A stretch of 64,000 nucleotides of DNA from IMG/VR virus record IMGVR_UViG_3300027896_000013; one strand, 5' to 3'. The notes beneath the pieces were generated by a model. The model worked only from the letters and a program-made list of their open reading frames with translations. It was not told the origin of the DNA and ran no database searches. The position numbers and the translations under genes are program-made. The stretch comes from a virus. Positions 3,495-31,656 of this stretch are shown piece by piece (position 1 is the first letter of the stretch; each line of letters opens with the position of its first letter).

Positions 3495-5573
3495 CTATGT
3501 AGAGCTGCGAGCCACCTGTAAATGGCTACCAACTACAGTGCGGCCAGCTAGTGAACCAGTTGACGACAACAACCATCTAAAGGACGAATATGCAGATACT
3601 CTAGGAACTCTAATATAACCAACATCGTAATCACCTGGTTGACAGCTATACAGAGTTGTCCATGGTACGCTTATACCACTGCTTGGATATGTTGCTGTAC
3701 CTTGTATTAGAGACACGAAGCTCTCACCATATTGAAATGGTGTAAACGTTAACACATTATAAAACCGATCTATCTCCTGTATAATACCATCTTTAAATTC
3801 ATGTATAACCCATGCAGTGTTAGCAGTTGTAGTGGTTGTCCATTGAGATGATTGATCTATACTAAATGCGTTGTTTGCTGTGCTCACATTACCAGATGCG
3901 TAATCATGACCCTGCGCATAAACAGGTGAGATATGCATACCAATCAATGATACGTCAGTTGGTGTAGGTACTGGAGTCGGTATAGGTGGGGTTGGAGTTG
4001 GGGTTGGATATTGGTATGTACCATACAGTGCCAAGTACTTACCCACTACGGTAACACTAGACAGCGAAGCTGTCGATGAAAGCAACCAACGGAATGAGTT
4101 GTATGCGCTAGTCCATGGCACTGGTAAACGAGCAGGGTCAATATAATACAAGCTGCTTGTTGAACTGTATATAGTAGTCCACGGTACACTTAAACCACTG
4201 CTTGGATATGTAGCAGTTCCTTGAAGGAGTGTAACATAATTACCACTAAGTCCTCCAGTAAAATAGAATCGACCTGTAAACCGATCAACTGCTGCATATT
4301 GATTTGGTTTCATCTCAAATGTTATCCAGGCAGATGGAGCTTTCGTAAATGCATTCCACATAGTAGTGGTATTATCAAATGCATGAAATGCGCTTAACCC
4401 AGCCATCTGAGATGAAGCGTATATATGGCCATACGCATTAACATCTGCAGCTATATTATTAGTACCGTTAAGTGTTCTTACCGGTGTCGGGGTTGGTGTT
4501 GGTACAGGTGTTGCTGTAGGTAGAAAATAACCATACACTTGAATAGCGCTTGCAGCTGATCCAAAATTACTATTAATATTCTTAGATGCATGTTCAATTC
4601 TAATACCTCTGAAAGATGATAGTGAATTTATAATTTGTGGTGATATTCTATCAAAACTAAAAAACGACGCTGCAGTAAGCAGTGGAACGCAGCCGTGATA
4701 GTCATGGGGTGTAGTTGATCGATTATCGTATATAGCCCTAGGATCACCTGAAGTACCGAATACGATTGTATGTATATTTTGACCTTCTTTGTCAGAAGGC
4801 ATATAAACTGAACCAGAAAGCTTTTTGATAATAACTTTCTGGTTAACACCAAAATCATACGAAATCCAAGACGTTACTAATGCACTAGATGAGGTTAGGT
4901 GCCATGTATCAATCCAATAATCACCAACAACTTTATCAAATGCTCTCCAAGCTTCATGTCCAATAAAAGAACCCTCACCTTCTGAATCTGCTGTACCTGA
5001 AGGTCTTGAGTCATCTACCATCTTAGGTATCAGCTCGACTATTACAGGTGTCGGAGTCGGTGTTGGTAGTGGTGTTGATGTTGGTAGCGGTGTAGGAGTC
5101 GGAGTAGTACCATATATACCAGACAGTTGAAGCATATTTGCCACCACAGTCATACTATTCTGCAGTGGGTTATATGCGCTAACACCCCAGCGGAAGGATC
5201 TATAATCACCAGGGACGAAGCTATTCTCCCCAGGTAATCCACCTATATAACCACTACTTATTGAATTACTTGATAATGCTAAAACATGCCAATCACCATC
5301 TGTTGCAGATATAGCTTCTGCAGTAGTACCTTGTAAAAACGTAGTCCAGTTTGCAGCGCTGTTTACATTATCAACATTTAAAAAACCAGACCTCATCCAA
5401 GCTGTAACAGTAAAACCAAAATCGTATGTTACTGCCCAATATGGGTAAACTTTATTAGACGTATAGCCTACCCATGCACCACCTACACCATCAAACGCTT
5501 TCCAAGCGGCGGATGTTGTACCTAATATACTAGTAGCGGATGCTGTTCCAAATGGTGTTGTATTTGATATCAT
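3495..5573 (-). CDS. Virion appendage protein with four F5/8-type-C (discoidin)-like domains joined by Pro-Thr linkers; likely C-terminal part of a split gene
   Basis: Repeated (A)W/F.AFD...W..Y/F.F...SFRW units separated by PTPTP linkers; start placed at ATG 5573 (ATGA overlap with upstream stop) because residues 1-56 of the called ORF are off-frame PT repeat. Confidence 0.65.
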
Positions 5574-6706
5574 GGAATTAACGGATAAGGGGTTTGCGAC
5601 ACTGTCGGTGTCGGAGTCGGAGTTGGTGGTACCGCTGTTGGTGTCGGTGGTATCGCTGTCGCAGTAGGTACTGGTGTTGCAGTAGGTACTGGTGTCGGTG
5701 TAGGCGGAATCTCCGTTGGTGTAGCTGTCGGACCTACCCACGGTGTAGGTGTAGGTACTATATCAGTCGCTGTTGGAGTAGGTGTTGCTGTTGGAGTAGG
5801 TGTTGCAGTTGGAGTAGGTGTAGGAGTCTCAGTTGGTGTTGGAGTAGGTGTCTCAGTCGCTGTTGGTGTAGGTGTAGGCGTCTCAGTTGGTGTTGGTGTA
5901 GGAGTCTCAGTCGCTGTTGGTGTAGGTGTTGCAGTTGGTGGTGGTAATGTAGGTGTAGGTAGTGGTGTCGCTGTTGGCATTGGAGTAGGTGTAGGACCAT
6001 ACGAGATTTTTAATTTCGTAGCTGCTAACAAATCATCACTTTCAACCTCGAACATACACATTGAGTTACTACCTCTAGCTGCTGATAGCTGTGATACAGA
6101 AACAATATGAACATTATCTATATCGTAAATTGAATTAGGGTAGACTGTAACACTGTAGTAGTAAAATATCTGAGTCATATCACCGCATAAAGCTGTGATC
6201 GCAGGTGTATATGTTATTGGATTTGATGATGCATAATACACGAATGACTGAGGTAACTGTGTTGGTGAGTTTATGTTTGTTTCACCGAAAAATACTTGAT
6301 CTGAAAAATCAATATAGTGATTTAGAATTGGTCGATTAACTACAATTGCTTCCTCACCGTTTCCTGGTTCATATATAATTTTGAGTACGTCGTGCTGTGA
6401 TGTATCAATACCAGAGGGTACAAATGTTATTGTAGTATCACCTTTGATTGTTATCTGTGGTATATATTGGGTTTGATTAACCACCTGGTAACCCCACGGA
6501 AAGAATTCTCCACCACACACATAAGATGTAAATGTTGTATCAATATAACTACCTGTATCTGGATCGCTCCAGAAACCACCAAAAGCAGATAAACCTCTAT
6601 AATCAACTTCACCAAGAACTGGGTCTCTGAAGAACCACGCGTCTAGCACACTCGGCTGAATTGCAGAGAGTGCTGAACTTGTCAACGTGATGAAAAGTGT
6701 CTTCAT
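5570..6706 (-). CDS. Virion protein with long C-terminal Pro-Thr repeat (N-terminal part of the split appendage gene)
   Basis: 378-aa ORF, about 130 aa of [10 protein letters not shown] repeats; TAAGTA late box 7 nt upstream. Confidence 0.7.
5600..5997 (-). repeat. Low-complexity coding repeat encoding (PT)n/PTAT/PTET mucin-like linker
   Basis: Degenerate tandem ggtgta/ggtgtt/ggagta hexamers on the + strand. Confidence 0.9.
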
Positions 6707-6727: not shown

Positions 6728-7324
6728 CTAGAGCCATGACCCAGCGTTTTTGTGCTGTCCATACTGAAAAAGTTTACGTTCTTTATATGGATATTCAAAA
6801 TATACATGGCTGTTTGCTTTATAGTCTGTTCGCCCTTCAAGAGCATTCGTCAAAAACATGGGACCTGCAAAATTTAAAACATCTGTAGTGTTCTGAATTT
6901 TGGGGACATATTCTATCTTACTAACAATATCCTCCACGCACAATGTACCTGGTCGACTATAAAAGATACTATTCGTAAGAAGTGGTGAGTCTGATTCGTG
7001 AAAAAATATAGTAGATAGCTTAGTTTGGTTTATCAAACTTTCAACATTACGAAACCACTCAATGTCAAGATCCGCATACAACCCACCGAGTTTATGTATA
7101 ATACATAATCTAGCTAAATCCGATCGTGCAATCGGCCATTTAATACATGAAAGGTATGCTGGATATAAAACCGGGAAGAAAGTTTCTATAAACCTCTCAA
7201 TGCGCTCATTGTTCCACAAAACAACTTCCCAGTTGGGGTGTAATGATTTAAATGAAGACTGGTACACAGCAGCATATGGCGGTATCTCGTTACCTATCCA
7301 AATTTGATGTAAAGTCTTAACCAT
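6728..7324 (-). CDS. Glycosyltransferase, GT32/DXD sugar-binding (OCH1-like) family
   Basis: LHQIWIG, RSDLARL..IHKLGGLYADLD, NSIF and GP motifs. Confidence 0.85.
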   Translation of the reverse strand: MVKTLHQIWIGNEIPPYAAVYQSSFKSLHPNWEVVLWNNERIERFIETFFPVLYPAYLSCIKWPIARSDLARLCIIHKLGGLYADLDIEWFRNVESLINQTKLSTIFFHESDSPLLTNSIFYSRPGTLCVEDIVSKIEYVPKIQNTTDVLNFAGPMFLTNALEGRTDYKANSHVYFEYPYKERKLFQYGQHKNAGSWL

Positions 7325-7330
7325 TGTAGC

Positions 7331-7353
7331 TATTTACATGGTAACTGTAAATA
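7331..7353. promoter_or_regulatory. Divergent pair of late-promoter boxes (TAAATA - strand 7331-7336; TAAATA + strand 7348-7353)
   Basis: Boxes lie 6 nt before ATG 7324 (-) and 5 nt before ATG 7359 (+). Confidence 0.65.
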
Positions 7354-7358
7354 TTCAA

Positions 7359-8318
7359 ATGTACGAGGCAGACAGCATCGAGATAGATATAACAGAGCAC
7401 TGTAACTTACGCTGCGCTCAGTGTACTCATAATGCTCCTTATTTTAAAACATCAGACACCCACTATACTCTTGAGCAATTTAAGAAAGATATAGATATCT
7501 TATCTAACAAAATACATTTCAATGCTATTAGACTGGTTGGTGGTGAACCGCTGCTGAACAATGATTTAGTAGAGATGCTTGAACACATCACAAATTCAAA
7601 AATAACTAATCAAATTGTTCTTGTGACGAATGGTATACTGTTAAGTGACACACCTCGCAGAGTATTTGAGCTAGTAAGCAGCGTGAGAGTTAACATCTAC
7701 CCACTTTCAGCTGATAAGATGCAGTCAGTAAAAGATGGTGTATTGTCGTTACGATCCTCTCACCCAGAATTAGACGTTATAACTAATGTAACAAATTACT
7801 TTTCAAAAACTAACACAATAGAAAAGATAACAGATGAAGCTCTCGTTAATAAAATCTACAGTAAGTGTATAGCCCGAGTTGACGGGTTCAATTTATTCAA
7901 TGGCAGAATTTATAGATGCTATGCATCTCGACGGAAATACAAATACCTAAAACAGCATCAGCATCTAATAAAGGATGATTTTGAATATCTAAACAACCCG
8001 GACTTAGACGCGATACGAATTACGACTGAAACATCTGACAAGGATTTTCATGACTTCTTCGTCCAATCTGCACCGCCTGTAGCGTGCCAGTGGTGTTTAG
8101 GGTGCTCGGGAAAACAATTGCCTCACAAGCAGTTACAAGACTTCACTAATGACATTGCAACCCTTAAAGATCTTGATTTTAAAGCGGGTGAAGCTTATTT
8201 GAGTAATTGTATACTGAGTTGGTCACATCTAAAACCGTCGTCCTTAAAGAATAACCCATTCTTTAAGATGGAGCATGTAAAGGAATACTATAAATACTTT
8301 ACCACATCGCCGTTCTAA
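7359..8318 (+). CDS. Radical SAM enzyme with C-terminal Cys motifs
   Basis: CNLRCAQC (CX3CX2C), GGEPLL, VTNG; later C..RC..CQWC; start moved from 7338 to 7359 on promoter spacing. Confidence 0.85.
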   Translation: MYEADSIEIDITEHCNLRCAQCTHNAPYFKTSDTHYTLEQFKKDIDILSNKIHFNAIRLVGGEPLLNNDLVEMLEHITNSKITNQIVLVTNGILLSDTPRRVFELVSSVRVNIYPLSADKMQSVKDGVLSLRSSHPELDVITNVTNYFSKTNTIEKITDEALVNKIYSKCIARVDGFNLFNGRIYRCYASRRKYKYLKQHQHLIKDDFEYLNNPDLDAIRITTETSDKDFHDFFVQSAPPVACQWCLGCSGKQLPHKQLQDFTNDIATLKDLDFKAGEAYLSNCILSWSHLKPSSLKNNPFFKMEHVKEYYKYFTTSPF

Positions 8319-9450
8319 ACTCAGGAAATACATCTAGGTAATTAAATTTGTCGTTTTGATTTTGCATAAACGCTTCGAACTTCTCTTTTGAAATATTATT
8401 CGGTCTAAGCAATATTTGCTGAATGTGTGTAATTTTCTCCGGTACAGTCATAAGATTAAGCTCCTTATCAGTACATTCACCTAGGTACGCTTTGTACTCG
8501 TCAAGCTTCTTGTACGCTAACACTTTTAGCTTTGACGGCATTACATTTACTGACAGCTCTTCCGGGTTTGTTAGGCAATATAATCTCAAATTGTCCTTTG
8601 TCAGGTACCCCTTTTCAATCCAGTCCTTATGAAAGTCGAACAGGTTTAAAACACTTAAATTTGTAACAGTTGGCTGTGCAGCAAACTTGATGTTCGGGTA
8701 GTTGCACATTGCTTCTCTATTTGCCTCTATCTGATTCCAATTAGCCCCTCTACGTATATACTCTAACCGTGTTCCACTACAATCTAGACTACCGAAGATC
8801 TTTACATTCTTGAAGTTGTTGAGTAGCTCATACATATTGCGACCTTTATACATATAACCACTCATATTCGTAGAGAACTGAACCTCTATATCAGAGCGGC
8901 CTTGCTCTAATAACAGGTCGAGTAAGCTATAAAAACTCTCGTTTAAGTGTGGTTCACCACCTACTAGATATAAAATATCTAGTTCTTTAAGTGTTTCTTT
9001 GGCAACTGACAATAATTCTTCAGTTGTCTTAAAACAGGTCTTTAGTTTTGCTCCATCAAACATTGTGCTGTGTTGACTGCTGCAATAGAGGCACTTGAAA
9101 TTACAGATATTAGACACATTTATCTCCCAGCATTTGAGATTATATGCAAATGTACCGTCTTCCTGTGTATTTTTAAAATATTCAGTTTGCAAATCTTGAT
9201 ACTTCTGCGGAGCAAGGTGTTTAAACGGCTGCTTACCGTCTATGCAGTGTCGTTTGCAAACCTCGGGCATTTGTCCATTTTTAAGCTGCTGCCTCAGCTT
9301 TTTTATTGTCGGTGAATTAAACAACGCTTCAGGAGACTCTGATGTTAGGCCAACTTTATACTCTTCCTCTCCGAACACCTTACAACACGGATAAGCGTAA
9401 CCATCCGTGTGGTATATTAGATGAAACCAAGGAAAAATACAAGTAGACAT
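8299..9450 (-). CDS. Radical SAM enzyme with N-terminal SPASM/twitch-like Fe-S domain
   Basis: N-terminal CIFPW..DG.AYPCC..C..C; core CNFKCLYC, GGEP, STN, YIRRGANW. Confidence 0.85.
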   Translation of the reverse strand: MSTCIFPWFHLIYHTDGYAYPCCKVFGEEEYKVGLTSESPEALFNSPTIKKLRQQLKNGQMPEVCKRHCIDGKQPFKHLAPQKYQDLQTEYFKNTQEDGTFAYNLKCWEINVSNICNFKCLYCSSQHSTMFDGAKLKTCFKTTEELLSVAKETLKELDILYLVGGEPHLNESFYSLLDLLLEQGRSDIEVQFSTNMSGYMYKGRNMYELLNNFKNVKIFGSLDCSGTRLEYIRRGANWNQIEANREAMCNYPNIKFAAQPTVTNLSVLNLFDFHKDWIEKGYLTKDNLRLYCLTNPEELSVNVMPSKLKVLAYKKLDEYKAYLGECTDKELNLMTVPEKITHIQQILLRPNNISKEKFEAFMQNQNDKFNYLDVFPEFRTAMW

Positions 9451-9451
9451 G

Positions 9452-9461
9452 TAAGTATTTA
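9452..9461. promoter_or_regulatory. Overlapping divergent late-promoter boxes (TAAGTA + 9452-9457; TAAATA - 9456-9461)
   Basis: 8 nt before ATG 9466 (+) and 5 nt before ATG 9450 (-) in a 15-bp gap. Confidence 0.65.
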
Positions 9462-9465
9462 TCGG

Positions 9466-10218
9466 ATGTATAAAGAATATCGAGTTTTGAAAGAATCTGA
9501 AAAGCTTAAGGGTTTTATCAGGTTTATAAACATTTTACCATCTACCGGTAAGCGTAAATTACTAGGTATCGGTATTAGTGACTCTATTACTTTAAAATAT
9601 TATGCCGAGCTAGACAAAGCTGATGACGTGTTACAAAGCGACTTCTTCCACATCTCTACAGCAAATTCATTTAAGCTTTACAGTACTCATCAGGCTAGGG
9701 AATATGAATCCAGTCTGGCTATTGGCATAAAGATTAGTAAAGATACCGTTACAAAATATTTTCACGTTAAGGTTACACCTGGTACTATCATTCCGAATTA
9801 TGAATCTCAGTTGTGGTTTTTTAAAATACTCAAAATAGATCCGATAACATTACCTATTGGAATATCTGGTGAAATACAACAGACTAATTGCAGAGCATGT
9901 ATACCACCTTTAAAGCTTAAAAGTTATTACTATCTGCGAACACCTGAAACTGTAGAGCGTTTTATAGCTTTCAAAAGGTTAAATGTTGACCCGTTATTAG
10001 TAGATCACATTGAAATGTATGCCACGGATACAGATTTTAAATATAATCTCATCTTTAAGGAAGCAGATACTGAAGTAGCTATGTCTGTTTTAACTGAGCG
10101 TGAAAAACAGATTGTTAAAGATCTTCAGCCGGAGATAAATCGACCCATATTATACGCAGGGCGGACAGCCAAGGAAGCTACTGTGTATTACTCTTTAACT
10201 AACAATAGTACGCTGTAA
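9466..10218 (+). CDS. Hypothetical protein, possible ABBA/PT-barrel prenyltransferase-like fold
   Basis: Five spaced beta-hairpin-like motifs ending K-x-Y/K-Y/V-Y-Y (LLGIGI..LKYY, IGIKI..TKYF, IGISGE..LKSYY, HIEMY..FKYN, LYAG..TVYY); start from promoter spacing. Confidence 0.4.
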   Translation: MYKEYRVLKESEKLKGFIRFINILPSTGKRKLLGIGISDSITLKYYAELDKADDVLQSDFFHISTANSFKLYSTHQAREYESSLAIGIKISKDTVTKYFHVKVTPGTIIPNYESQLWFFKILKIDPITLPIGISGEIQQTNCRACIPPLKLKSYYYLRTPETVERFIAFKRLNVDPLLVDHIEMYATDTDFKYNLIFKEADTEVAMSVLTEREKQIVKDLQPEINRPILYAGRTAKEATVYYSLTNNSTL

Positions 10219-10851
10219 CATAAATGCCTCTGCATATGGGTGTGCAATCTCACCACCACGTTTAATAGCATAAGCTCTGATATATTCTGAATCTCGCAAA
10301 CGACTGTATTCTCCTGGGTAACACTTCATTGCATCAATCTTTCTCTGAATGTGTGTATCGTCTAGAGGTACATAATAATTTGAAATAAATTGAGACCTAA
10401 CACTACCAACTGTCTGGTCTGTGGAGGATATAATCTCACCGGTTATGAACCTCGGAACCACTAAACCCTTTGAAGGCCTTATAGCGGAACAAACAGCTCT
10501 AAATACTTTTGAATGGTCTTGATGTAGGTCTGTGTCTCCGGATGACCACAGTGTATGGCAGTCGTGTGACTTAATAATAGTTTCAATGTGCTTAATTAGT
10601 ACCCTATCATTCACATCCGGTGATAATTTTAACAAACTTAGAAATGTGTAACCTAATACATCTTTAGCATCCTTAGCATGTACTTGCTGCAGCTCGCTTC
10701 GAGCAGTTTGAGTATCAAACATCACAAATACTTTTACCTTTGCACCTTGGTCGACTAATTTAGATATCACACCACCAAAACCGAGCACCTCATCATCTGC
10801 ATGTGGTACAATGAATAGGTGGGATTGCTTAATGTTTCTCAATATGGTCAT
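10195..10851 (-). CDS. PIG-L/LmbE family N-acetylhexosamine deacetylase
   Basis: PHADDE..G.GG, HQDH, KIDAMKCY, AEAF motifs. Confidence 0.88.
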   Translation of the reverse strand: MTILRNIKQSHLFIVPHADDEVLGFGGVISKLVDQGAKVKVFVMFDTQTARSELQQVHAKDAKDVLGYTFLSLLKLSPDVNDRVLIKHIETIIKSHDCHTLWSSGDTDLHQDHSKVFRAVCSAIRPSKGLVVPRFITGEIISSTDQTVGSVRSQFISNYYVPLDDTHIQRKIDAMKCYPGEYSRLRDSEYIRAYAIKRGGEIAHPYAEAFMLQRTIVS

Positions 10852-11596
10852 TTATTTTGTTATGTGTATTTAAGAAGTCGTACTTTTCTAAAATTTTATA
10901 TTTCTCTTCAGGTGTTCGTCCTTCTAATTTATGAAATATTATAGGATTAACTGGATGAATGACAGCATAATCTGTAACAATTTCTAAATCAAGCGGTGTT
11001 TTTACATTCATCTTGAGCATGGCTATTTTCGGGTTCTTTGCAACCGTATAACCTATTCGTTTATCTTCACCTAAGTAAGTTTCGACAGTATTGATAAAAT
11101 CCTTCTCGGGGTTACTGACAATAAACTCCGCAGCATATCGACTTAGAAAATAGAAACCACCGCAAACATAATCAAGTAGGCTGATATTAGTCTTATCTAA
11201 GTAGCTTGGATCAGTATCATACTCTTTCATTTTGAAATTGTTCCAATACCGAGTTTGATTTAACCGCTCTGCACACAGATTTACATATCCACCGTAATCG
11301 TACTTGAAAATCAACTCCGGGATGATATTCTTCTCAATAAACGTATCATCATCGATTTTTAAGAGATAATCTGCATCAGTTTTATGTACGAAGTGTTCTA
11401 TGAGTTTATACGTCTTGTGAGATAGCTGGTTATATTTTTCCTCGCAGTCTACTATTATTTTTGGTTCTACTACTAGTTCAGGTGATCTACCATACACAAA
11501 ATAGTATTCAAAACCTTGTTTATCAAGGTGCTGTTTAACAAGGTTAGCAGGTCTATAATTCTTGCTACAAGTCGTTACGTATAATACTATCTTCAT
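10829..11596 (-). CDS. GT31-like (galactosyltransferase/fringe-like) glycosyltransferase
   Basis: YNQLSHKT, YLLKIDDDTF, YVCGGFYFLS, EDKRIG; ATG 11596 overlaps upstream TGA. Confidence 0.8.
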   Translation of the reverse strand: MKIVLYVTTCSKNYRPANLVKQHLDKQGFEYYFVYGRSPELVVEPKIIVDCEEKYNQLSHKTYKLIEHFVHKTDADYLLKIDDDTFIEKNIIPELIFKYDYGGYVNLCAERLNQTRYWNNFKMKEYDTDPSYLDKTNISLLDYVCGGFYFLSRYAAEFIVSNPEKDFINTVETYLGEDKRIGYTVAKNPKIAMLKMNVKTPLDLEIVTDYAVIHPVNPIIFHKLEGRTPEEKYKILEKYDFLNTHNKINDHIEKH

Positions 11597-12243
11597 GCAC
11601 CTGTAGGTCTCGGTAAGAGTACCGGTGGCCATATAGTAACTAGGGTACTGTATGTATCAGCAGTATCTATTTGTTTAAGCGCTTCTTCTACACCGGTAAT
11701 AGTTGCAGCTATAATAGCCTTTATTTCTTCAACACCGTTAATATTTTGAGCTTCTTCGAATTCTACTAAATCTTTCTGCAGAGTCTCTAATACACATTTC
11801 TTTTTCTCGTTAATCAGTTTTTTCCAGCCGTCTTTCGCAACAGTTAAAAAAGCTGAATCTTGATTTATAATAGACTGTATATCAAAATATTGAAATAATT
11901 TACACTTCTTTAAGATAGGAGCATACTGATGTACATCTTGTATTACTAGAACTTTAAGATGAGGTTGCTTACTAAAAATATCACTACAGTCTTTGATTAA
12001 ACTCTGTATAATATCAAGCTCACCTGCGAAGTCATCGTGAGATTCTGATACAAAAGCGACCGTATTATCCGTAATATTAAGAGATATCTCGCAGTTATTA
12101 ATTACATCTAAAAATTTACCAGTATTTGTGTTTAAGCTTTTTCCGAATATAGTCTGTCTTTCTTTCGTCTTTTCGTTTATATATTCAAATTTAACAACCT
12201 TACCAGATGTAAGGACTGCAACTAACAGTGTTGATATTGACAT
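11593..12243 (-). CDS. Hypothetical protein, possible tail-fibre assembly chaperone
   Basis: Helical C-terminus ending IDTADT..LVTIWPPVL resembles fibre-assembly proteins; lies downstream of fibre genes. Confidence 0.4.
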   Translation of the reverse strand: MSISTLLVAVLTSGKVVKFEYINEKTKERQTIFGKSLNTNTGKFLDVINNCEISLNITDNTVAFVSESHDDFAGELDIIQSLIKDCSDIFSKQPHLKVLVIQDVHQYAPILKKCKLFQYFDIQSIINQDSAFLTVAKDGWKKLINEKKKCVLETLQKDLVEFEEAQNINGVEEIKAIIAATITGVEEALKQIDTADTYSTLVTIWPPVLLPRPTGA

Positions 12244-12249
12244 AGTATT

Positions 12250-12277
12250 ATTATAGTGTGTTAAATGCTGTAATCAA
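12250..12277 (-). promoter_or_regulatory. Sigma70-like promoter TTGATT-N16-TATAAT
   Basis: -10 box ends 6 nt before ATG 12243. Confidence 0.75.
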
Positions 12278-12280
12278 CCG

Positions 12281-13009
12281 TTATACTTGTGCACCGTATG
12301 TTGTCAATCCGTCATCAGATACCCATGCACCTGCACCTGTTTTTATCTTAAAAGGTACTCTCTGTATAGTAACCGGAGCTGGGGCGGGTTTAGAATACAC
12401 AGTAGATACTTTTGTAGTCATAGACAAACCGGACGCTAAATCTTGTACTGAAACATCATAACTATAAGGACTAATCAACCCAGAAGCTATTGTATATGTA
12501 CCAGCGCCTATTACATATGGGTTGATAGCAACGGATGGACCACCTCTTACAGTGATAAGCCACATACACTGAGAAGCTGCTGGTGTATTTCTAAGTTCCC
12601 AATCTAGTGCTGGTCTTTGCGCTGTAGCTGCGTTTAAGCTTATTGTGATTTTACCATCTTTTTTAGTGTGGTACTGACTGTAAGTTTCTGCATACACAGT
12701 AAGAGTAAATGACATTACCTGTGCACCAACTACGCTACCTAAAGAATAATCAGTTGATGTTCCTCCTGCGTATAAACTCTGTCCTGCAGCATACTGTCTA
12801 AATAATCCTACTATTGTAGAGATGCTTGTTTGACCTGTGATAGATACAGGTAAGGGACCGGGGTACGTACTAGCTAATACATTTATTTCTCGTATAGCGC
12901 TTGTTATACCAGGATCAGAAGGTACACCGTCATTAGCTAGCTCACCAATAGATAGATTGGAAGCTACACCATTAGTACCAAATGGAGGCATTACATAATT
13001 ATATCTCAT
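12281..13009 (-). CDS. Tail-fibre-associated structural protein
   Basis: 242-aa G/S/T-rich beta-type ORF coupled to the fibre gene. Confidence 0.5.
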   Translation of the reverse strand: MRYNYVMPPFGTNGVASNLSIGELANDGVPSDPGITSAIREINVLASTYPGPLPVSITGQTSISTIVGLFRQYAAGQSLYAGGTSTDYSLGSVVGAQVMSFTLTVYAETYSQYHTKKDGKITISLNAATAQRPALDWELRNTPAASQCMWLITVRGGPSVAINPYVIGAGTYTIASGLISPYSYDVSVQDLASGLSMTTKVSTVYSKPAPAPVTIQRVPFKIKTGAGAWVSDDGLTTYGAQV

Positions 13010-14229
13010 GTTATCTTTTTATTCAGCTCTTTTATAGCTTCAATTAAGAGGGGTATAATGCTGTCATACTTAACTGCCTTTGTACCATCTGATCTTGTGC
13101 TCACAGCTTCAGGTAATATCTTTTCAATTTCTTGAGCAATTACACCTACATCTTTACCATCTCTGAAATCACAGTTCCAGTCAAATGTTACACCGCGGAT
13201 CTGGTTTACCTTTTCTAACGCGTTAGGTATAACTTCAATATTCTTCTTCAACGTTTCATCAGATGTTGAGAATACAACAACGTCACCGGTTGCGATGATG
13301 GCGCCTTGTACGCTTAATGCAACTGTCGTAGTATTAAGACCTTGTACACTTAAACCTTTAAATGATGGTGGTGCTGTATTGATACCAAAGCTGCAGTTCG
13401 AGCTATACGTAGAAACTAAAGCTCCATTTGTGCTATACTTAAATGGTAGTGGCAATAGACCAGTCAGGAGAGAACCGGTACCGTTCCAGGCACCGCTGTT
13501 AGTTGCAAATAAAGAATAGCAGGTATACCAGTCAGTGCTATTACGTCCACGAGTTCCAAACGGGTATGTAAATATCTCACCATAAGCGGATATGTTACCG
13601 TTTAAATTGCTTAACAATCCTACAGTTAAGTCTTTCTGAAGAGCTGTAGAATCAGCTGCATATAGCTTTGAATTGGTTGTTATATCACCATCAACAACCA
13701 AAGTCTGCTGGCTGCCTGGTGTACCTACAGTTGTATTAATTAAGAGCCCTATTTTAGAGCTTATATTGAATACTGTTGTATCAAGATGTATTTGAGCTAC
13801 CTCGTCTGCTTTTACCGCTGTTACACCATTAGTACCATCTAATTGGCTTAGCAGATTATATCGTACAATCTGTGTTGGTTCTGGTACTGCTGATAGAGCA
13901 GCTTTATCGGTAATATGATATAGTACCTCTTTGGAGCTATCGTATATTAAATCACCTATATCAGCACCGTTTGCAGTAAGAGCAACAATAGCATCTTGAG
14001 TGAGTGGGTTTCCATCTACACCACCTTGAAAAATACCGTTAACAGCTCCGTGGTTGACAATACCTATTGGTGCGCCGCCTACAGTTGAGCTATCTCCAAC
14101 ATATAGTCGTTTCGTATCAATATTAAACGCTGGTTCACCGTATTCGAAAGTGACACCGTCGCCACCACCAGTTCTGCGAACAACGTCTGTACCTCTCCTA
14201 AATAAAATCTTAGTGATATTCTGAGCCAT
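13006..14229 (-). CDS. Tail fibre/spike with Mtd-N-like N-terminus and C-terminal intramolecular chaperone (peptidase S74)
   Basis: KILFRRG..GEPAFNIDTKRLYVGD; SDETLKKNI..RGVTFDW..GVIAQEIE..PEAV..Y..IIPLLIEAIKEL. Confidence 0.88.
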   Translation of the reverse strand: MAQNITKILFRRGTDVVRRTGGGDGVTFEYGEPAFNIDTKRLYVGDSSTVGGAPIGIVNHGAVNGIFQGGVDGNPLTQDAIVALTANGADIGDLIYDSSKEVLYHITDKAALSAVPEPTQIVRYNLLSQLDGTNGVTAVKADEVAQIHLDTTVFNISSKIGLLINTTVGTPGSQQTLVVDGDITTNSKLYAADSTALQKDLTVGLLSNLNGNISAYGEIFTYPFGTRGRNSTDWYTCYSLFATNSGAWNGTGSLLTGLLPLPFKYSTNGALVSTYSSNCSFGINTAPPSFKGLSVQGLNTTTVALSVQGAIIATGDVVVFSTSDETLKKNIEVIPNALEKVNQIRGVTFDWNCDFRDGKDVGVIAQEIEKILPEAVSTRSDGTKAVKYDSIIPLLIEAIKELNKKIT

Positions 14230-15313: not shown

Positions 15314-17446
15314 ATGCCACACAAACAAGAATCAGTAAATTTTTTAACAGAGGTATCTAACTTTATTTTCACAGACAAGTATGCAAGGTACTATGAAATA
15401 ATGAGCAGACGAGAAGCTTGGAACGAATGCGTTGGTCGCGTCGAAGACATGCACATCGCCAAGTTTAAGAAAATACTTTCAAAGGAGGAATTGAAGGAGA
15501 TGGAATGGGCATTCAACTTCGTAAGAGATAAAAAAGTTGTACCCTCTATGCGCTCGATGCAGTTCGGTGGCAAGGCTGTCGTAGCTCACAATCCTAGAAT
15601 TTTTAACTGCGCTGTACGACACATTGACAGTACACGCGCATTTGCAGAAGTGTTCTACCTTTTGTTGTGTGGTTGTGGTGTTGGGTTAGGTCTATCGAAA
15701 TACTTCGTTAATCGTTTACCTGATTTAGTTGGCCCTAGCGATAAGAGTGGTACGGTTGTTACCTACGTCGTTGAAGATAGCATCGAAGGTTGGGCTGATA
15801 GTATTGAAGCTCTTTTGAATTGCTATTTCCGTAATACTGCATATTCAGGTCGCAAGATTGTATTTGATTTTAGCAGAATTCGACCTGAAGGTGCTGTAAT
15901 TAAAACAGGCGGTGGTAAAGCTCCAGGATACAAAGGGCTTAAGAAGGGTTTACAGAAAATAAAGAGTTTACTTGACCACATCATAGAAGAAAACCACCAG
16001 AAACGTTTAAAACCAGTGAATGCGTATGATATCTTGATGCATTGCGCTGATGCTGTTTTAAGTGGTGGTATTCGCCGTTCAGCTACCTCAGTCATTTTTG
16101 ATAAGGATGATGAAGACATGCTCAATGCTAAGGTAGCTTTTAATGTTACCAAATACGCACACTTTGATGAGAACAGTAAAGGTAAGTATGAAGGCGTAGT
16201 TTACGTTGACGGTAAATTCGGCGGTATTCGTAATCACAGATATGATGTGGTTATTGAGAAGTGGGAATATGATATTCTCAAGGACAAGAAGACTATTGGC
16301 TGGAGCCATATCGAACCTCAGCGTGCACGTTCTAATAACAGTGTGCTTCTTCTGAGAGATAGTGTTACAGAAGAAGAGTTTATAAAGATCAATGCTCTGA
16401 CTCGCCAATTTGGTGAACCCGGATTTGTTTTCGCTAATCACCCTCATCAGTTGTTTAACCCATGCTTCGAGATCGGATTTATACCGGTAACTGCAGATGG
16501 TATATGCGGTGTACAGTTCTGCAACCTATCATCTATTAATGGAGCAAAAATCAAAACAGCGAATGACTTTTTTGAAGCTGTTAAAGCTGCTACTATCATA
16601 GGTACCTTACAAGCAACCTATACTGATTTTAGCTACCTAAGCAAGACTGCAAAACAACTTACAGAAGAAGAAGCTCTGCTTGGAGTATCGATTACCGGTA
16701 CTATGGATGCACCTGATATTATATTGAACGCATCTGTTCAAGAAAAAGGTGCAGCTATCGCTAAGAAGGTGAATAAGGAATGGGCATCTAAACTCAAAAT
16801 TAATCAAGCTGCACGCATCACAACACTGAAACCTGAAGGTTCTAGCTCGCTAGTTCTTGAGAGTGCTTCAGGTATTCACCCTCACCACGCGCGTCGTTAC
16901 TTCCGCCGTGTTCAAGTCAATAAACACGACCCAGTCTACAAATTCTTCAAGAAGATTAACCCGCATATGTGTGAAGAGAGTGTATGGTCGGCTAATAAGA
17001 CAGACGATGTAATTACTTTCCCTATCACCGTATCTAAGGAAGCAATGGTTAAGGCTGACTTATCTGCTATTAAACACTTGGATATTATTAAGTCTACACA
17101 AACACATTGGGTCAATAACGGTACAACTGAAGCTAACAAGAAGCCTATCACACATAATGTATCTTGTACAGTTATTGTGGATGAGAATGAGTGGAATGAT
17201 GTCTTTAAATACTTGTTCAAACACCGAAACTCTTTTGGTGCTGTATCTCTCTTACCAAAAACAGGTGATAAGCTCTTCAAGCAAGCTCCGAATGAAGCTG
17301 TTACGACCGAAGAGGACGAGAAGAAGTGGAATGATATTGTGTCTAACTATAAACCAGTTAACTACAAGCTACTGGAAGAAGACGAAGATTCTACAAAAAT
17401 ATCAGACACAGTAGCTTGTGCAGGTGGCAAATGTGACGTAGTTTAG
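15314..17446 (+). CDS. nrdJ: Class II (adenosylcobalamin-dependent) ribonucleotide reductase
   Basis: PSMRSMQFGG, FNCA, GEPG, NPCFEI, FCNL, TTLKPEGSSS, C-terminal CAGGKC; no nrdB adjacent. Confidence 0.9.
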   Translation: MPHKQESVNFLTEVSNFIFTDKYARYYEIMSRREAWNECVGRVEDMHIAKFKKILSKEELKEMEWAFNFVRDKKVVPSMRSMQFGGKAVVAHNPRIFNCAVRHIDSTRAFAEVFYLLLCGCGVGLGLSKYFVNRLPDLVGPSDKSGTVVTYVVEDSIEGWADSIEALLNCYFRNTAYSGRKIVFDFSRIRPEGAVIKTGGGKAPGYKGLKKGLQKIKSLLDHIIEENHQKRLKPVNAYDILMHCADAVLSGGIRRSATSVIFDKDDEDMLNAKVAFNVTKYAHFDENSKGKYEGVVYVDGKFGGIRNHRYDVVIEKWEYDILKDKKTIGWSHIEPQRARSNNSVLLLRDSVTEEEFIKINALTRQFGEPGFVFANHPHQLFNPCFEIGFIPVTADGICGVQFCNLSSINGAKIKTANDFFEAVKAATIIGTLQATYTDFSYLSKTAKQLTEEEALLGVSITGTMDAPDIILNASVQEKGAAIAKKVNKEWASKLKINQAARITTLKPEGSSSLVLESASGIHPHHARRYFRRVQVNKHDPVYKFFKKINPHMCEESVWSANKTDDVITFPITVSKEAMVKADLSAIKHLDIIKSTQTHWVNNGTTEANKKPITHNVSCTVIVDENEWNDVFKYLFKHRNSFGAVSLLPKTGDKLFKQAPNEAVTTEEDEKKWNDIVSNYKPVNYKLLEEDEDSTKISDTVACAGGKCDVV

Positions 17447-23759: not shown

Positions 23760-24344
23760 TTAACCGTTAAGTGCCCAAAGACGTGTGAATTCAGCTTTTG
23801 ATGTAAACCCGTTATATGGTGTGTTGACTGCAGATACGACTGTTGTGAGTGTCTGAACTGGGTTTGTAACAGGTGTTGGTGTTGAACCTACAAGGCATGT
23901 GCTGCTGAGTGTAACTGTATATGTAAGTGTTTGTGGTCCTGCTGCGCTTTTACTACCGAAAGCGGAGAGAGTAATACCGCTAACAGCCATTACACTTGTA
24001 ATAGTTACTGGGTAAATATTGGGATCTACAATAGTATAGAATGAATTACCTTCGGCTGTATAACATGGTGCACCGCTACGGCTCTCGCTAACTTTAATAC
24101 CTGTAACAATGGCCTTTGTATTGACGTTAGTGGTACGGATTCTAATATCCGTATGCGCTGCACTAAGAGCGTTGAAACTATTAACACCATTAAGACCATT
24201 AAGAGTATCAACGTACTTCGATAGAACTATCGCACCCGGTACCGGTGTCGCAGTTGGTGTCGGTGCAGGTGTTGCGGTTGGTGGCACCGGTGTTCCCGTT
24301 GGTGTCGGTGTCGGTACTTCTGGTGTTGCGGTTGGATCAGCCAT
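23760..24344 (-). CDS. Late protein with N-terminal Pro-Thr repeat, possible capsid decoration protein
   Basis: Directly downstream of gp23; PTATP repeats; TAAATA 5 nt upstream. Confidence 0.55.
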   Translation of the reverse strand: MADPTATPEVPTPTPTGTPVPPTATPAPTPTATPVPGAIVLSKYVDTLNGLNGVNSFNALSAAHTDIRIRTTNVNTKAIVTGIKVSESRSGAPCYTAEGNSFYTIVDPNIYPVTITSVMAVSGITLSAFGSKSAAGPQTLTYTVTLSSTCLVGSTPTPVTNPVQTLTTVVSAVNTPYNGFTSKAEFTRLWALNG

Positions 24345-29856: not shown

Positions 29857-31656
29857 TTAGGCGGTTGGGGCTGCGGGTGCTGCGGGTGCCCCAGGAGCTG
29901 CAGCTCCTGCTCCAGCTTCTGCACCTGCCTCTGGTGCACCTACTTCACCACCGGCTGCTGGTGCCGGTCCAAAGGCTGGCGGTAGCGCACTACCACCACC
30001 TGTAGGTGCTCCACCAGCTGGTGGAGCGGCTTCTGCACCAGGCGCTGCTGCGGAAGCAGCTGCTGCCACAGCCTGTCTCCAGTTAGGTCCTTGACCTTTG
30101 ATCTGCTCAATTTCCCATTGGAACTCAGAATCTTTTCTCATGAACTCACGATTTGCGAGTACATCATGATCAGACCAACCGAGATACTTCTTCTGTGCGT
30201 ATGTCTTTGACACGAATTCATTTTGAGTGATACTATTATAAGACTCAAACTTCAATTGAAGTTTTTGATTTTCTCTGAGTTCGTAGAAGTTAGTAGGTAC
30301 ATTAAACTCAACTTCAAAATGATGCTCTCTAAGTTCTAGATTATCCCAGATACCTTTAAGTTTAAGATGGGTTATAAATCCTGGCTTAATACCAGAAGCA
30401 ACGCGTTGCTGTAGACGAACGATAAACCTAGCAAATTTGAGCTCCTCGCGAAGGATACCTTCACCATCATTAAATGCGTCTTCAGGATTAACACGAGTAA
30501 CGGGTACTTTAAGCGCTTTATAGAGCTTCTTAACGAAATATAACAGATCCGTTAATTCACCAAGATTACCAGCTGGTTGTAATCTTGTAACTGATGTACC
30601 TTCAGAACCTGCTCTTTTTGGGAACCAGAAAGCATCAAGCATGCTCTGCGGATTAAACTTGTTAACTGTTGAACCTTGATCACCATCATATGTGCGCTTA
30701 GACCAATACTGTGTCATCAATCTTCTGAGATATGATTCAGCCTTTGGTGGTGACATATTACCAACGTCAACACTAAATACCAGACGTTCAGGTGCATTAA
30801 CCAATCGATATATAACAATCGAATCTTCAATCAAACTCAACTGTCTATAAGATCTACGAGCATTTTCAATGAAAGGCAGGCGAAGCGTTTTATTCTCGTT
30901 CCATATACCAGAATTGATATAAATGACTTGATTCTGGTCAAGAGGTACCATCTGTATCTCTTTTATCTTGGTCGGATTTTTTGAGTCATATACCGGCTTA
31001 CGAAGCAAATAGCCTTTTACGAGCATGTTCTGCACGTTTGAGTAGATCGGGTCTACTACATCAGATGGAATAGAGATAATACCAAGTACACCTTTATCAG
31101 GGTGATCCTTGTGTATAATGTTTTCAAAGAATATTTCTGCATCTACAAGCAGCTGACGAAAATATTCCCACCCACGTTTGTGAAGTTCATAGTAACTTAC
31201 ATAACGCTTCCACTCTTCATTCAACTTCTCCTGCTTCTTTGCATCTATGTCTGAATCTTTGTATATAAGATTTGCAACCGATCCGTCTCGTGCAACGTTG
31301 ATACATTCATCACAAATTTCATCCAATGCATCAGATACCTCAGAGAATGCTGCCATCACTCTGTATTCTGTAAGCCGTTTACCTTTATCGGGTTGAACGT
31401 TTGCATACATGAATTCGAGAAAGTCTTTATTGCGAAGAATATTAGAAGCTGGTTCATCATACTGAACAACAGAGGAAATCGATTTATTAATCAGATTTTC
31501 TTGCTGTTTGGAACCTTTATCGTAGAAAGCTTCGAATTTTGGATTTAGTTCTGCGATTCGGTCAATAACCCTATACCCAGTATACGGTATATTTGATGAT
31601 ACAAACTTCATCAATTCTCTACCGAATGTACTTTCACGATTAGAATCAGCCGCCAT
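29857..31656 (-). CDS. gp20: Portal protein with Ala/Pro/Gly-rich C-terminal tail
   Basis: QLSLIEDSIVIYRL..APERLVF.VDVGNM, DAFWFPKR, LYKALKVP, REELKF. Confidence 0.95.
   Translation of the reverse strand: MAADSNRESTFGRELMKFVSSNIPYTGYRVIDRIAELNPKFEAFYDKGSKQQENLINKSISSVVQYDEPASNILRNKDFLEFMYANVQPDKGKRLTEYRVMAAFSEVSDALDEICDECINVARDGSVANLIYKDSDIDAKKQEKLNEEWKRYVSYYELHKRGWEYFRQLLVDAEIFFENIIHKDHPDKGVLGIISIPSDVVDPIYSNVQNMLVKGYLLRKPVYDSKNPTKIKEIQMVPLDQNQVIYINSGIWNENKTLRLPFIENARRSYRQLSLIEDSIVIYRLVNAPERLVFSVDVGNMSPPKAESYLRRLMTQYWSKRTYDGDQGSTVNKFNPQSMLDAFWFPKRAGSEGTSVTRLQPAGNLGELTDLLYFVKKLYKALKVPVTRVNPEDAFNDGEGILREELKFARFIVRLQQRVASGIKPGFITHLKLKGIWDNLELREHHFEVEFNVPTNFYELRENQKLQLKFESYNSITQNEFVSKTYAQKKYLGWSDHDVLANREFMRKDSEFQWEIEQIKGQGPNWRQAVAAAASAAAPGAEAAPPAGGAPTGGGSALPPAFGPAPAAGGEVGAPEAGAEAGAGAAAPGAPAAPAAPTA

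Follow-up and report, generated by a model that had tools for sequence, protein, structure and literature searches.

Among the closest described counterparts of the locus reported here is the host recognition cluster (HRC) known from pelagimyophages and cyanomyophages. In the passages of Zaragoza-Solas et al. (2020; PMC7029224) that bear on it, the HRC is a hypervariable fibre region with cassettes of GT8, UDP-glucose dehydrogenase and radical S-adenosylmethionine (SAM) genes that are gained or lost between close relatives, and its putative function is a change of the host O-chain. Virus-encoded glycosylation of the virion itself is known from the capsid glycans of chloroviruses (PMC9614988), and mycobacteriophage glycosyltransferase genes adjoin capsid genes (PMC11256854). 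Here we describe an island of six enzyme genes in the fibre region of a 64,000-nucleotide stretch of viral DNA, IMG/VR record IMGVR_UViG_3300027896_000013 (the window, by which we mean the whole stretch). The island encodes a GT32-type and a GT31-type glycosyltransferase, two radical SAM enzymes, a PIG-L family de-N-acetylase and a 250-amino-acid (aa) protein with the predicted fold of an ABBA prenyltransferase. It is inherited together with a non-enzymatic partner protein, and we tentatively propose that it modifies a phage-encoded protein associated with the fibres.

The source of the window is an uncultured T4-like myovirus, as judged by PHROG matches to a gp23-type capsid protein, a portal, a DNA polymerase, a ribonucleotide reductase and a gp5-like spike. 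A large clade in IMG/VR has major capsid proteins (MCPs) 71-82% identical to that of the window; searching 50,697 phage records with the nucleotide sequence of the island returned no match. The six enzyme genes (6728-11632) are all intact and tightly packed, with gaps of 13-37 nt or overlaps between them, and their strands alternate. An earlier sequence-only reading had placed six enzyme genes in the fibre region and had guessed that the 250-aa product was a PT-barrel protein; the Pfam and NCBIfam assignments together with the predicted fold bear out both proposals.

That the 250-aa protein adopts an ABBA prenyltransferase-type barrel fold is well supported by structure prediction. Its AlphaFold2 model, made from a 54-sequence alignment, has a predicted local distance difference test score (pLDDT) of 95.7 and a predicted template modelling score (pTM) of 0.91, and consists of five alpha-alpha-beta-beta units (H-H-E-E x5). 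Every top Foldseek match is an ABBA prenyltransferase, led by the peptide enzymes DciF, LimF, PatF, PagF and KgpF. With VIA-align, 224-232 of the 250 residues align to DciF, CymD, KgpF and PagF at Z 15.2; 120 PDB chains are matched at Z of at least 8, and among the matches listed (Z 12.2-15.2) all 50 are ABBA prenyltransferases. Sequence comparison alone gives no such assignment: the protein and its 54 family members have no Pfam or NCBIfam match, and the family profile has none among PDB sequences. Scans of IMG/VR and of 185,579 species genomes with the protein and its family found nothing, and a later profile search of clade records did find the family, which is rare (56 clusters among 1.84 billion representatives in a profile search). 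Ten residues are invariant or nearly so (K44, Y46, K89, H100, K152, Y154, Y156, E183, K192 and Y241); by strand assignment, the invariant positions lie on strands with the i/i+2 spacing that would be expected of a diphosphate pocket.

The ABBA peptide prenyltransferases of cyanobactin and other pathways for peptides that are made by ribosomes and modified after translation (RiPPs), namely PagF, KgpF, LimF, PatF and DciF, thus have in common with the phage protein a predicted ten-strand barrel (Z 14-15 over about 225 of the 250 residues), whereas sequence identity to them is only 7-12% and the phage protein is shorter than every matched ABBA chain (277-430 aa). Cyanobactin systems include a protease and a precursor gene; neither stands beside the phage gene, whose context is that of a phage. 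In the literature we found no relevant report linking cyanophages to a prenyltransferase.

The remaining enzymes are assigned by family models and carry intact catalytic motifs that are invariant across lineages. GT31 scores 43.7 bits against PF01762 (cut-off 23), with D94, D95 and E189-D190 invariant in seven sequences, and GT32 scores 49.9 bits against PF04488 (cut-off 23), with D85 and D87 invariant across five lineages. The PIG-L protein scores 48.1 bits (cut-off 28.2), and its PHxDD and HxxH motifs (P16, H17, D19, D20, H110, H113) are invariant in six lineages; its best NCBIfam match, to BshB1, reaches 28 bits, far under the cut-off of 182. The GT31 gene overlaps the PIG-L gene by 23 nt in the window, and in two relatives (L083 and G007), as in the window, the two genes either adjoin or overlap. 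Both radical SAM genes match PF04055 (44.8 and 47.2 bits, cut-off 29.5), and their CxxxCxxC motifs, CNLRCAQC and CNFKCLYC, are invariant. The first radical SAM enzyme also has four conserved C-terminal cysteines (invariant set C22, C26, C29, C177, C194, C250 and C253) and is 36-41% identical to its orthologues in L083, L084 and G001. The second matches the N-terminal twitch model NF033640 over residues 2-379 (244 bits, cut-off 170), with Pfam placing a SPASM domain at residues 4-69 ahead of a Radical_SAM domain at 110-244. Its twitch-domain cysteines (C4, C22, C23, C65, C69) are invariant, its orthologues in clade relatives are 35-40% identical, and its closest homologue, P0002, is 49% identical and lies on a 222-kb contig; a single-protein scan of IMG/VR with the enzyme of the window gave no match.

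The broad family of N-twitch radical SAM enzymes, with more than 570 IMG/VR matches, says little about the island, because most of its members stand in tandem paralogue arrays devoid of other island genes. On hundreds of IMG/VR contigs we observed same-strand arrays of 4-8 such paralogues of about 400-470 aa each (for example L008:6047-15069, L010:5704-14544 and L146:10943-16988), interspersed with short uncharacterised genes and without glycosyltransferase, PIG-L or ABBA genes. In Vibrio phage KVP40 (L001, 135055-137161) two convergent N-twitch paralogues come directly after two genes, one QueC-like and one matching PF04095; the pair was rejected as a counterpart of the island enzymes, being distant paralogues in another context.

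Relatives of the island were recovered first by scans of metagenomes and IMG/VR and then by searching named clade records with profiles. Six further lineages carry it: L083; L084/L085; G001 (L146/L157); G007 (L316), a close relative of L084 rated 100% complete; G008 (L315), of 229.7 kb and likewise rated 100% complete; and G006 (L317), with a reduced set. The genes for the ABBA-fold protein, PIG-L, GT31, N-twitch radical SAM enzymes and GT32 or GT8 stay together though their order and strands are shuffled, and since the set has been retained through such rearrangement, it probably serves one function. Between lineages the enzymes are mostly 25-40% identical, with a maximum of 81% for L084 and G007, the two most similar. 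In seven of seven lineages the island has an S74 fibre gene as its neighbour. By comparison, about 220 other phage loci with N-twitch radical SAM genes (3.5 Mb) contained no ABBA, GT31, GT32 or GT8 gene, no homologue of the partner protein and a single PIG-L gene. The island genes are one co-inherited module physically tied to the fibre region.

Relatives add further enzymes to this core. In L084 and G007 these are a GT8, a GT2, two PhyH dioxygenases and a homologue of flavin-dependent tryptophan halogenases; L083 has a methyltransferase and a second GT31; and G001, G008 and G006 have an AsnB-like amidotransferase, a UDP-glucose/GDP-mannose dehydrogenase-like protein, more SPASM radical SAM enzymes and a methyltransferase. 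The island is a toolkit for building and tailoring a glycan. The syntenic genome G002, whose MCP is 80% identical to that of the window, keeps the orthologous S74 fibre and lacks the island. At the island site it has a 933-aa protein with proline/threonine (PT) repeats (L331:9845-12646(-)) and small same-strand open reading frames (ORFs) of 135-283 aa (L331:3205-8253(-)), which form an alternative cassette.

The partner protein ends in the motif W-P-x-x-[LFY]-x-P-x-P, and we refer to it as the WP protein. Homologues stand beside the enzyme set in L083, L084/L085, G007, G001 and G008, making six lineages with the window, and they share little except an acidic helical region and this C-terminal tail. 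AlphaFold2 is confident only about a helical hairpin at residues 130-200 of the 216-aa protein, just before the tail; a profile search recovered the query proteins themselves only, and an Atlas search gave no usable match. From the S74 fibre onward genome G002 shares synteny with the window, yet it has no WP protein. Because it lacks both the WP protein and the island and yet keeps the fibre, the WP protein belongs to the island and not to the fibre module. As a separate observation, the halogenase homologues (PF04820, 1.9e-77) lie inside the islands of L084 (14442-15863(-)) and L316 (14306-15724(+)), together with a partner protein whose tail holds the invariant tryptophan.

Four of the island genes carry their own copy of a late promoter-like box, as the sequence-only reading had noted, 5-8 nt before their starts: TAAATA at 7331-7336 (-), 6 nt before the GT32 ATG; TAAATA at 7348-7353 (+), 5 nt before the first radical SAM gene (start 7359); TAAGTA at 9452-9457 (+), 8 nt before the 250-aa gene (start 9466); and a box at 9456-9461 (-), 5 nt before the ATG of the second radical SAM gene. 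This count assumes the start at M8 (7359) for the first radical SAM gene, which is backed by alignment with relatives, and the start at 9466 for the 250-aa gene, which rests on the removal of a 30-nt divergent overlap and on box spacing. Of the 78 starts in the window, 21 have a TAA[AG]TA that ends 5-10 nt upstream, where 0.65 would be expected, so that the box is a real signal. It does not follow that boxed genes are expressed with structural genes and apart from DNA metabolism, as had been argued: the box is not specific to virion genes, because a perfect TATAAATA box also stands 10 nt ahead of the start of a class II-like ribonucleotide reductase gene (15314-17446(+)).

The sigma70-like promoter that had been placed ahead of the GT31 and PIG-L genes has a more mixed standing: the site (12277-12250(-)) is the best match in its region at 10 of 12 positions, whereas the number of such sites there (40, against 36.4 in shuffles) is not above shuffles. 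In L083 a sigma70-like site likewise precedes the ABBA, GT31 and PIG-L genes. Both the late box, (N)ATAAATA or TAAGTA, and the sigma70-like -10 element end 5-10 nt before starts, with no Shine-Dalgarno sequence visible (for example at 29857-31656(-), 13006-14229(-), 54189(+), 60493(+) and 12250-12277(-)), and for this reason many transcripts of the phage may be leaderless or nearly so.

From these observations, we hypothesize that the island is a glycoconjugate pathway of the cytoplasm whose target is a fibre-associated protein encoded by the phage, and we give this reading a probability of roughly 0.4. The island would be an accessory cassette of a hypervariable fibre-region island in this clade of T4-like phages, working in the cytoplasm. 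GT31 would add an N-acetylhexosamine or galactose residue, the coupled PIG-L enzyme would then remove the N-acetyl group and expose an amine, and GT32 (with GT8 or GT2 in relatives) would lengthen the glycan. Further changes would come from both radical SAM enzymes and from the ABBA-fold enzyme, the latter probably adding a prenyl group from host dimethylallyl diphosphate (DMAPP) or geranyl diphosphate (GPP). The acceptor would most likely be a protein that the phage encodes and expresses along with the fibre genes; its best candidate is the WP protein or a protein that the WP protein escorts, and PT linkers would not be obligate.

Several results are in line with this proposal. Among them are the joint occurrence of the enzymes and the WP protein across lineages, the absence of both from G002, the invariant catalytic motifs and the coupling of GT31 to PIG-L. 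Action in the cytoplasm is supported by the island proteins of the window, L083, L084 and L146, in which no membrane helix is predicted, and a peptide or protein acceptor by the best structural matches of the ABBA-fold enzyme, which act on peptides. The additional enzymes of relatives fit the tailoring of both glycan and protein, and the late boxes on four genes support late timing. A stronger form of the hypothesis, that the phage both prenylates and glycosylates its own fibre-associated protein, with the WP tail as modification or docking site, we regard as unlikely.

Other points weigh against the proposal. The fold alone is no proof of prenyl transfer. We infer the chemical steps from the enzyme families, and the acceptor from context rather than from direct evidence. 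Adjacency to fibre genes is weak evidence in a region of T4-like genomes that is plastic, and the WP protein, with a length of 216-449 aa and only its tail conserved, could use that tail for docking just as well as offer it for modification. GT31 and PIG-L lie behind sigma70-like promoters, so not all island genes are late. Finally, the synthesis of lipopolysaccharide (LPS) core and O-chain likewise typically involves GT8, UDP-sugar dehydrogenase and peripheral glycosyltransferases that lack membrane helices, and such a role is the published reading (PMC7029224).

The last point leads to the alternative that the enzymes remodel the envelope of the host, altering its LPS core, O-chain or capsule during infection and so blocking superinfection or retaining progeny. 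This is how the glycosyltransferase-rich HRCs of pelagimyophages and cyanomyophages are read in the passages of PMC7029224 on their function. It would account for the GT8, GT2, UDP-sugar dehydrogenase and AsnB-like amidotransferase of relatives, which are classic O-antigen or core enzymes, and for the sigma70-like promoters ahead of GT31 and PIG-L. Yet the island has no flippase, polymerase, ligase or membrane protein, four of its genes have late boxes, no role in LPS synthesis is known for ABBA prenyltransferases, SPASM radical SAM enzymes or the halogenase, and the co-inherited WP protein would be left unexplained. We therefore consider envelope remodelling somewhat unlikely.

Distinctly less probable, in our judgement, is that the island makes a small molecule in free form or a peptide of the RiPP type, a prenylated amino-sugar compound for instance, which would be set free at lysis or act within the cell. 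ABBA enzymes, SPASM/twitch radical SAM enzymes, halogenases, PhyH and AsnB-like proteins and methyltransferases are indeed hallmark tailoring enzymes of natural-product pathways, and a radical SAM enzyme, a PIG-L-family deacetylase and a glycosyltransferase occur together in the tunicamycin and 2-deoxystreptamine aminoglycoside pathways. The strict tie of the island to the fibre region speaks against such a product, as does the absence from the island of a scaffold-forming enzyme, a short precursor gene, a protease and an exporter. The intergenic gaps of the window (at most 37 nt) hold no conserved small ORF, and Pfam detected no RiPP recognition element (RRE), protease or transporter domain in the island proteins of the window, L083, L084, G001, G007 and G008. 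We rejected a classic RiPP cluster for want of precursor, protease and RRE, and an aminoglycoside or tunicamycin-like pathway for want of scaffold enzymes.

The sequence-only reading had favoured a glycan pathway acting on the Thr-rich stalks of virion appendages, which would be O-glycosylated or otherwise decorated by the island. Its glycan pathway survives as the co-inherited toolkit beside the fibre gene; the stalks as the target do not. The three PT-rich ORFs concerned (5570-6706, 3495-5573 and 23760-24344) are confirmed. In the window the island directly adjoins PT-repeat genes, and in G001 some 8 kb separate the two; among control phage loci such repeats are uncommon, occurring in 2 of 143, each of these on a contig of about 0.8-0.9 Mb. 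In eukaryotes, moreover, GT31 enzymes act on mucin-type and hydroxyproline-rich repeats. Across relatives, however, island and PT repeats dissociate in both directions: the complete, island-bearing genome G008 has no ORF segment with at least 80% proline or threonine over 20 aa, while G002 has its 933-aa PT-repeat protein and no island. G007 has two isolated PT-rich segments only, both far from its island, and the flanks of the island in L083 and L084 have none. Since G008 has the island without PT repeats and G002 the reverse, an obligate link fails the refuting test that the sequence-only reading had itself set, and the stalks are a very improbable general target; PT linkers may be an occasional substrate in the phage of the window. 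We also consider it extremely improbable that the island hypermodifies the DNA of the phage by attaching a sugar or some other group to a modified base: phage glycosyltransferases and radical SAM enzymes reportedly take part in such pathways, but this island lies among fibre genes, has late boxes and lacks a kinase, aGPT-Pplase or DpdA-like partner, no precedent is known for ABBA or PIG-L enzymes that act on DNA, and a better candidate is a second glycosyltransferase operon, which adjoins the replication genes.

The coordinates of the island and its neighbours are collected in Table 1. The 242-aa protein encoded between the fibre and the WP protein has no family match in Pfam, PHROG and NCBIfam scans; grouping it with its positional counterparts in relatives as one family was rejected, as they are only weakly alike and too divergent. 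On the other side of the island, the product of the ORF at 3495-5573(-) contains a domain of about 130 aa in four copies, with PT linkers between them, and its sole family match is a faint one to F5/8 type C (0.009); it is probably a multivalent carbohydrate-binding appendage.

Table 1. Island genes and adjacent features, with positions in the window.
Feature	Position	Strand	Evidence
GT32-type glycosyltransferase, 198 aa	6728-7324	(-)	Pfam PF04488 Gly_transf_sug 5.5e-13; DxD intact
Radical SAM enzyme 1	7338-8318, likely start 7359 (M8)	(+)	Pfam PF04055 2e-11; CxxxCxxC
Radical SAM enzyme 2, N-terminal twitch/SPASM	8299-9450	(-)	Radical_SAM 3.7e-12, SPASM 1.3e-6, NCBIfam NF033640 2.2e-72
ABBA (PT-barrel) prenyltransferase-fold protein, 250 aa	9466-10218 (ORF 9421/9466)	(+)	Predicted fold
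PIG-L family de-N-acetylase	10195-10851	(-)	Pfam PF02585 2.1e-12
GT31-type glycosyltransferase	10829-11632, likely start 11596	(-)	Pfam PF01762 Galactosyl_T 3.6e-11
Non-enzymatic partner (WP) protein, 216 aa	11593-12243	(-)	Homologues next to island in relatives
Sigma70-like promoter TTGATT-N16-TATAAT	12250-12277	(-)	Ahead of partner-GT31-PIG-L operon
242-aa protein between fibre and partner protein	12281-13009	(-)	Gly/Ser/Thr-rich, probably structural
Tail fibre, C-terminal S74 intramolecular chaperone	13006-14229	(-)	Pfam PF13884 2.2e-18, many PHROG tail-fibre families

It has long been known that abundant aquatic T4-like phages carry fibre islands rich in glycosyltransferases, and we know of none for which a target has been shown. 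The core of the present cassette is small and conserved and lends itself to testing, since it comprises the ABBA-fold enzyme, the GT31/PIG-L pair, the radical SAM enzymes and a single partner with a short, invariant tail. Should the ABBA protein prove to be an active prenyltransferase, the superfamily would be extended to viruses and would gain a very compact (250 aa) scaffold for the prenylation of peptides or proteins. If the acceptor is fibre-associated, host-recognition structures could carry complex post-translational chemistry that is invisible to genome annotation. Should the phage both prenylate and glycosylate such a protein, this would be the first prenylation of a ribosomal protein product by an ABBA enzyme in a virus, and the host-recognition apparatus would be decorated with lipid as well as sugar.

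Pairs in which the transfer of N-acetylglucosamine (GlcNAc) is followed by PIG-L-type de-N-acetylation are familiar from mycothiol (MshA/MshB), bacillithiol (BshA/BshB) and glycosylphosphatidylinositol (GPI; PIG-A/PIG-L) synthesis. The island resembles them in the translational coupling between its glycosyltransferase gene and a PIG-L gene with intact zinc-binding and catalytic motifs, and differs in that this glycosyltransferase is a GT31 (GT-A) and not a GT4 enzyme. With the virus-encoded virion glycosylation of chloroviruses and mycobacteriophages it shares soluble glycosyltransferases encoded beside structural genes and, presumably, a glycan made in the cytoplasm on a viral protein; unlike those systems it is known from its genes alone, it adds PIG-L, radical SAM and prenyltransferase-like enzymes, and its candidate acceptor is another one. 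The annotation of cyanophage S-SCSM2R also shows an island with glycosyltransferases, 2-oxoglutarate oxygenases and a radical SAM enzyme.

The island also resembles the HRC: like the cassettes in the passages of PMC7029224 on that cluster, the island is variable, lies beside S74 fibres in seven lineages and is absent in G002. The assertion that no characterised equivalent exists was thus overstated, as fibre cassettes that combine glycosyltransferases with radical SAM enzymes are described in those same passages. The phage clade is a different one, however, with MCPs about 33% identical between the window and cyanomyophages, and the island has a conserved core of its own, consisting of the ABBA-fold enzyme, PIG-L, GT31, GT32 and the WP protein, none of which was found in the passages of PMC7029224 on glycosyltransferases, hypervariable regions and radical SAM enzymes. 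The general phenomenon of fibre-region islands with glycosyltransferases and radical SAM enzymes is therefore already known, whereas the ABBA-fold family, the core set of enzymes and the WP protein are new.

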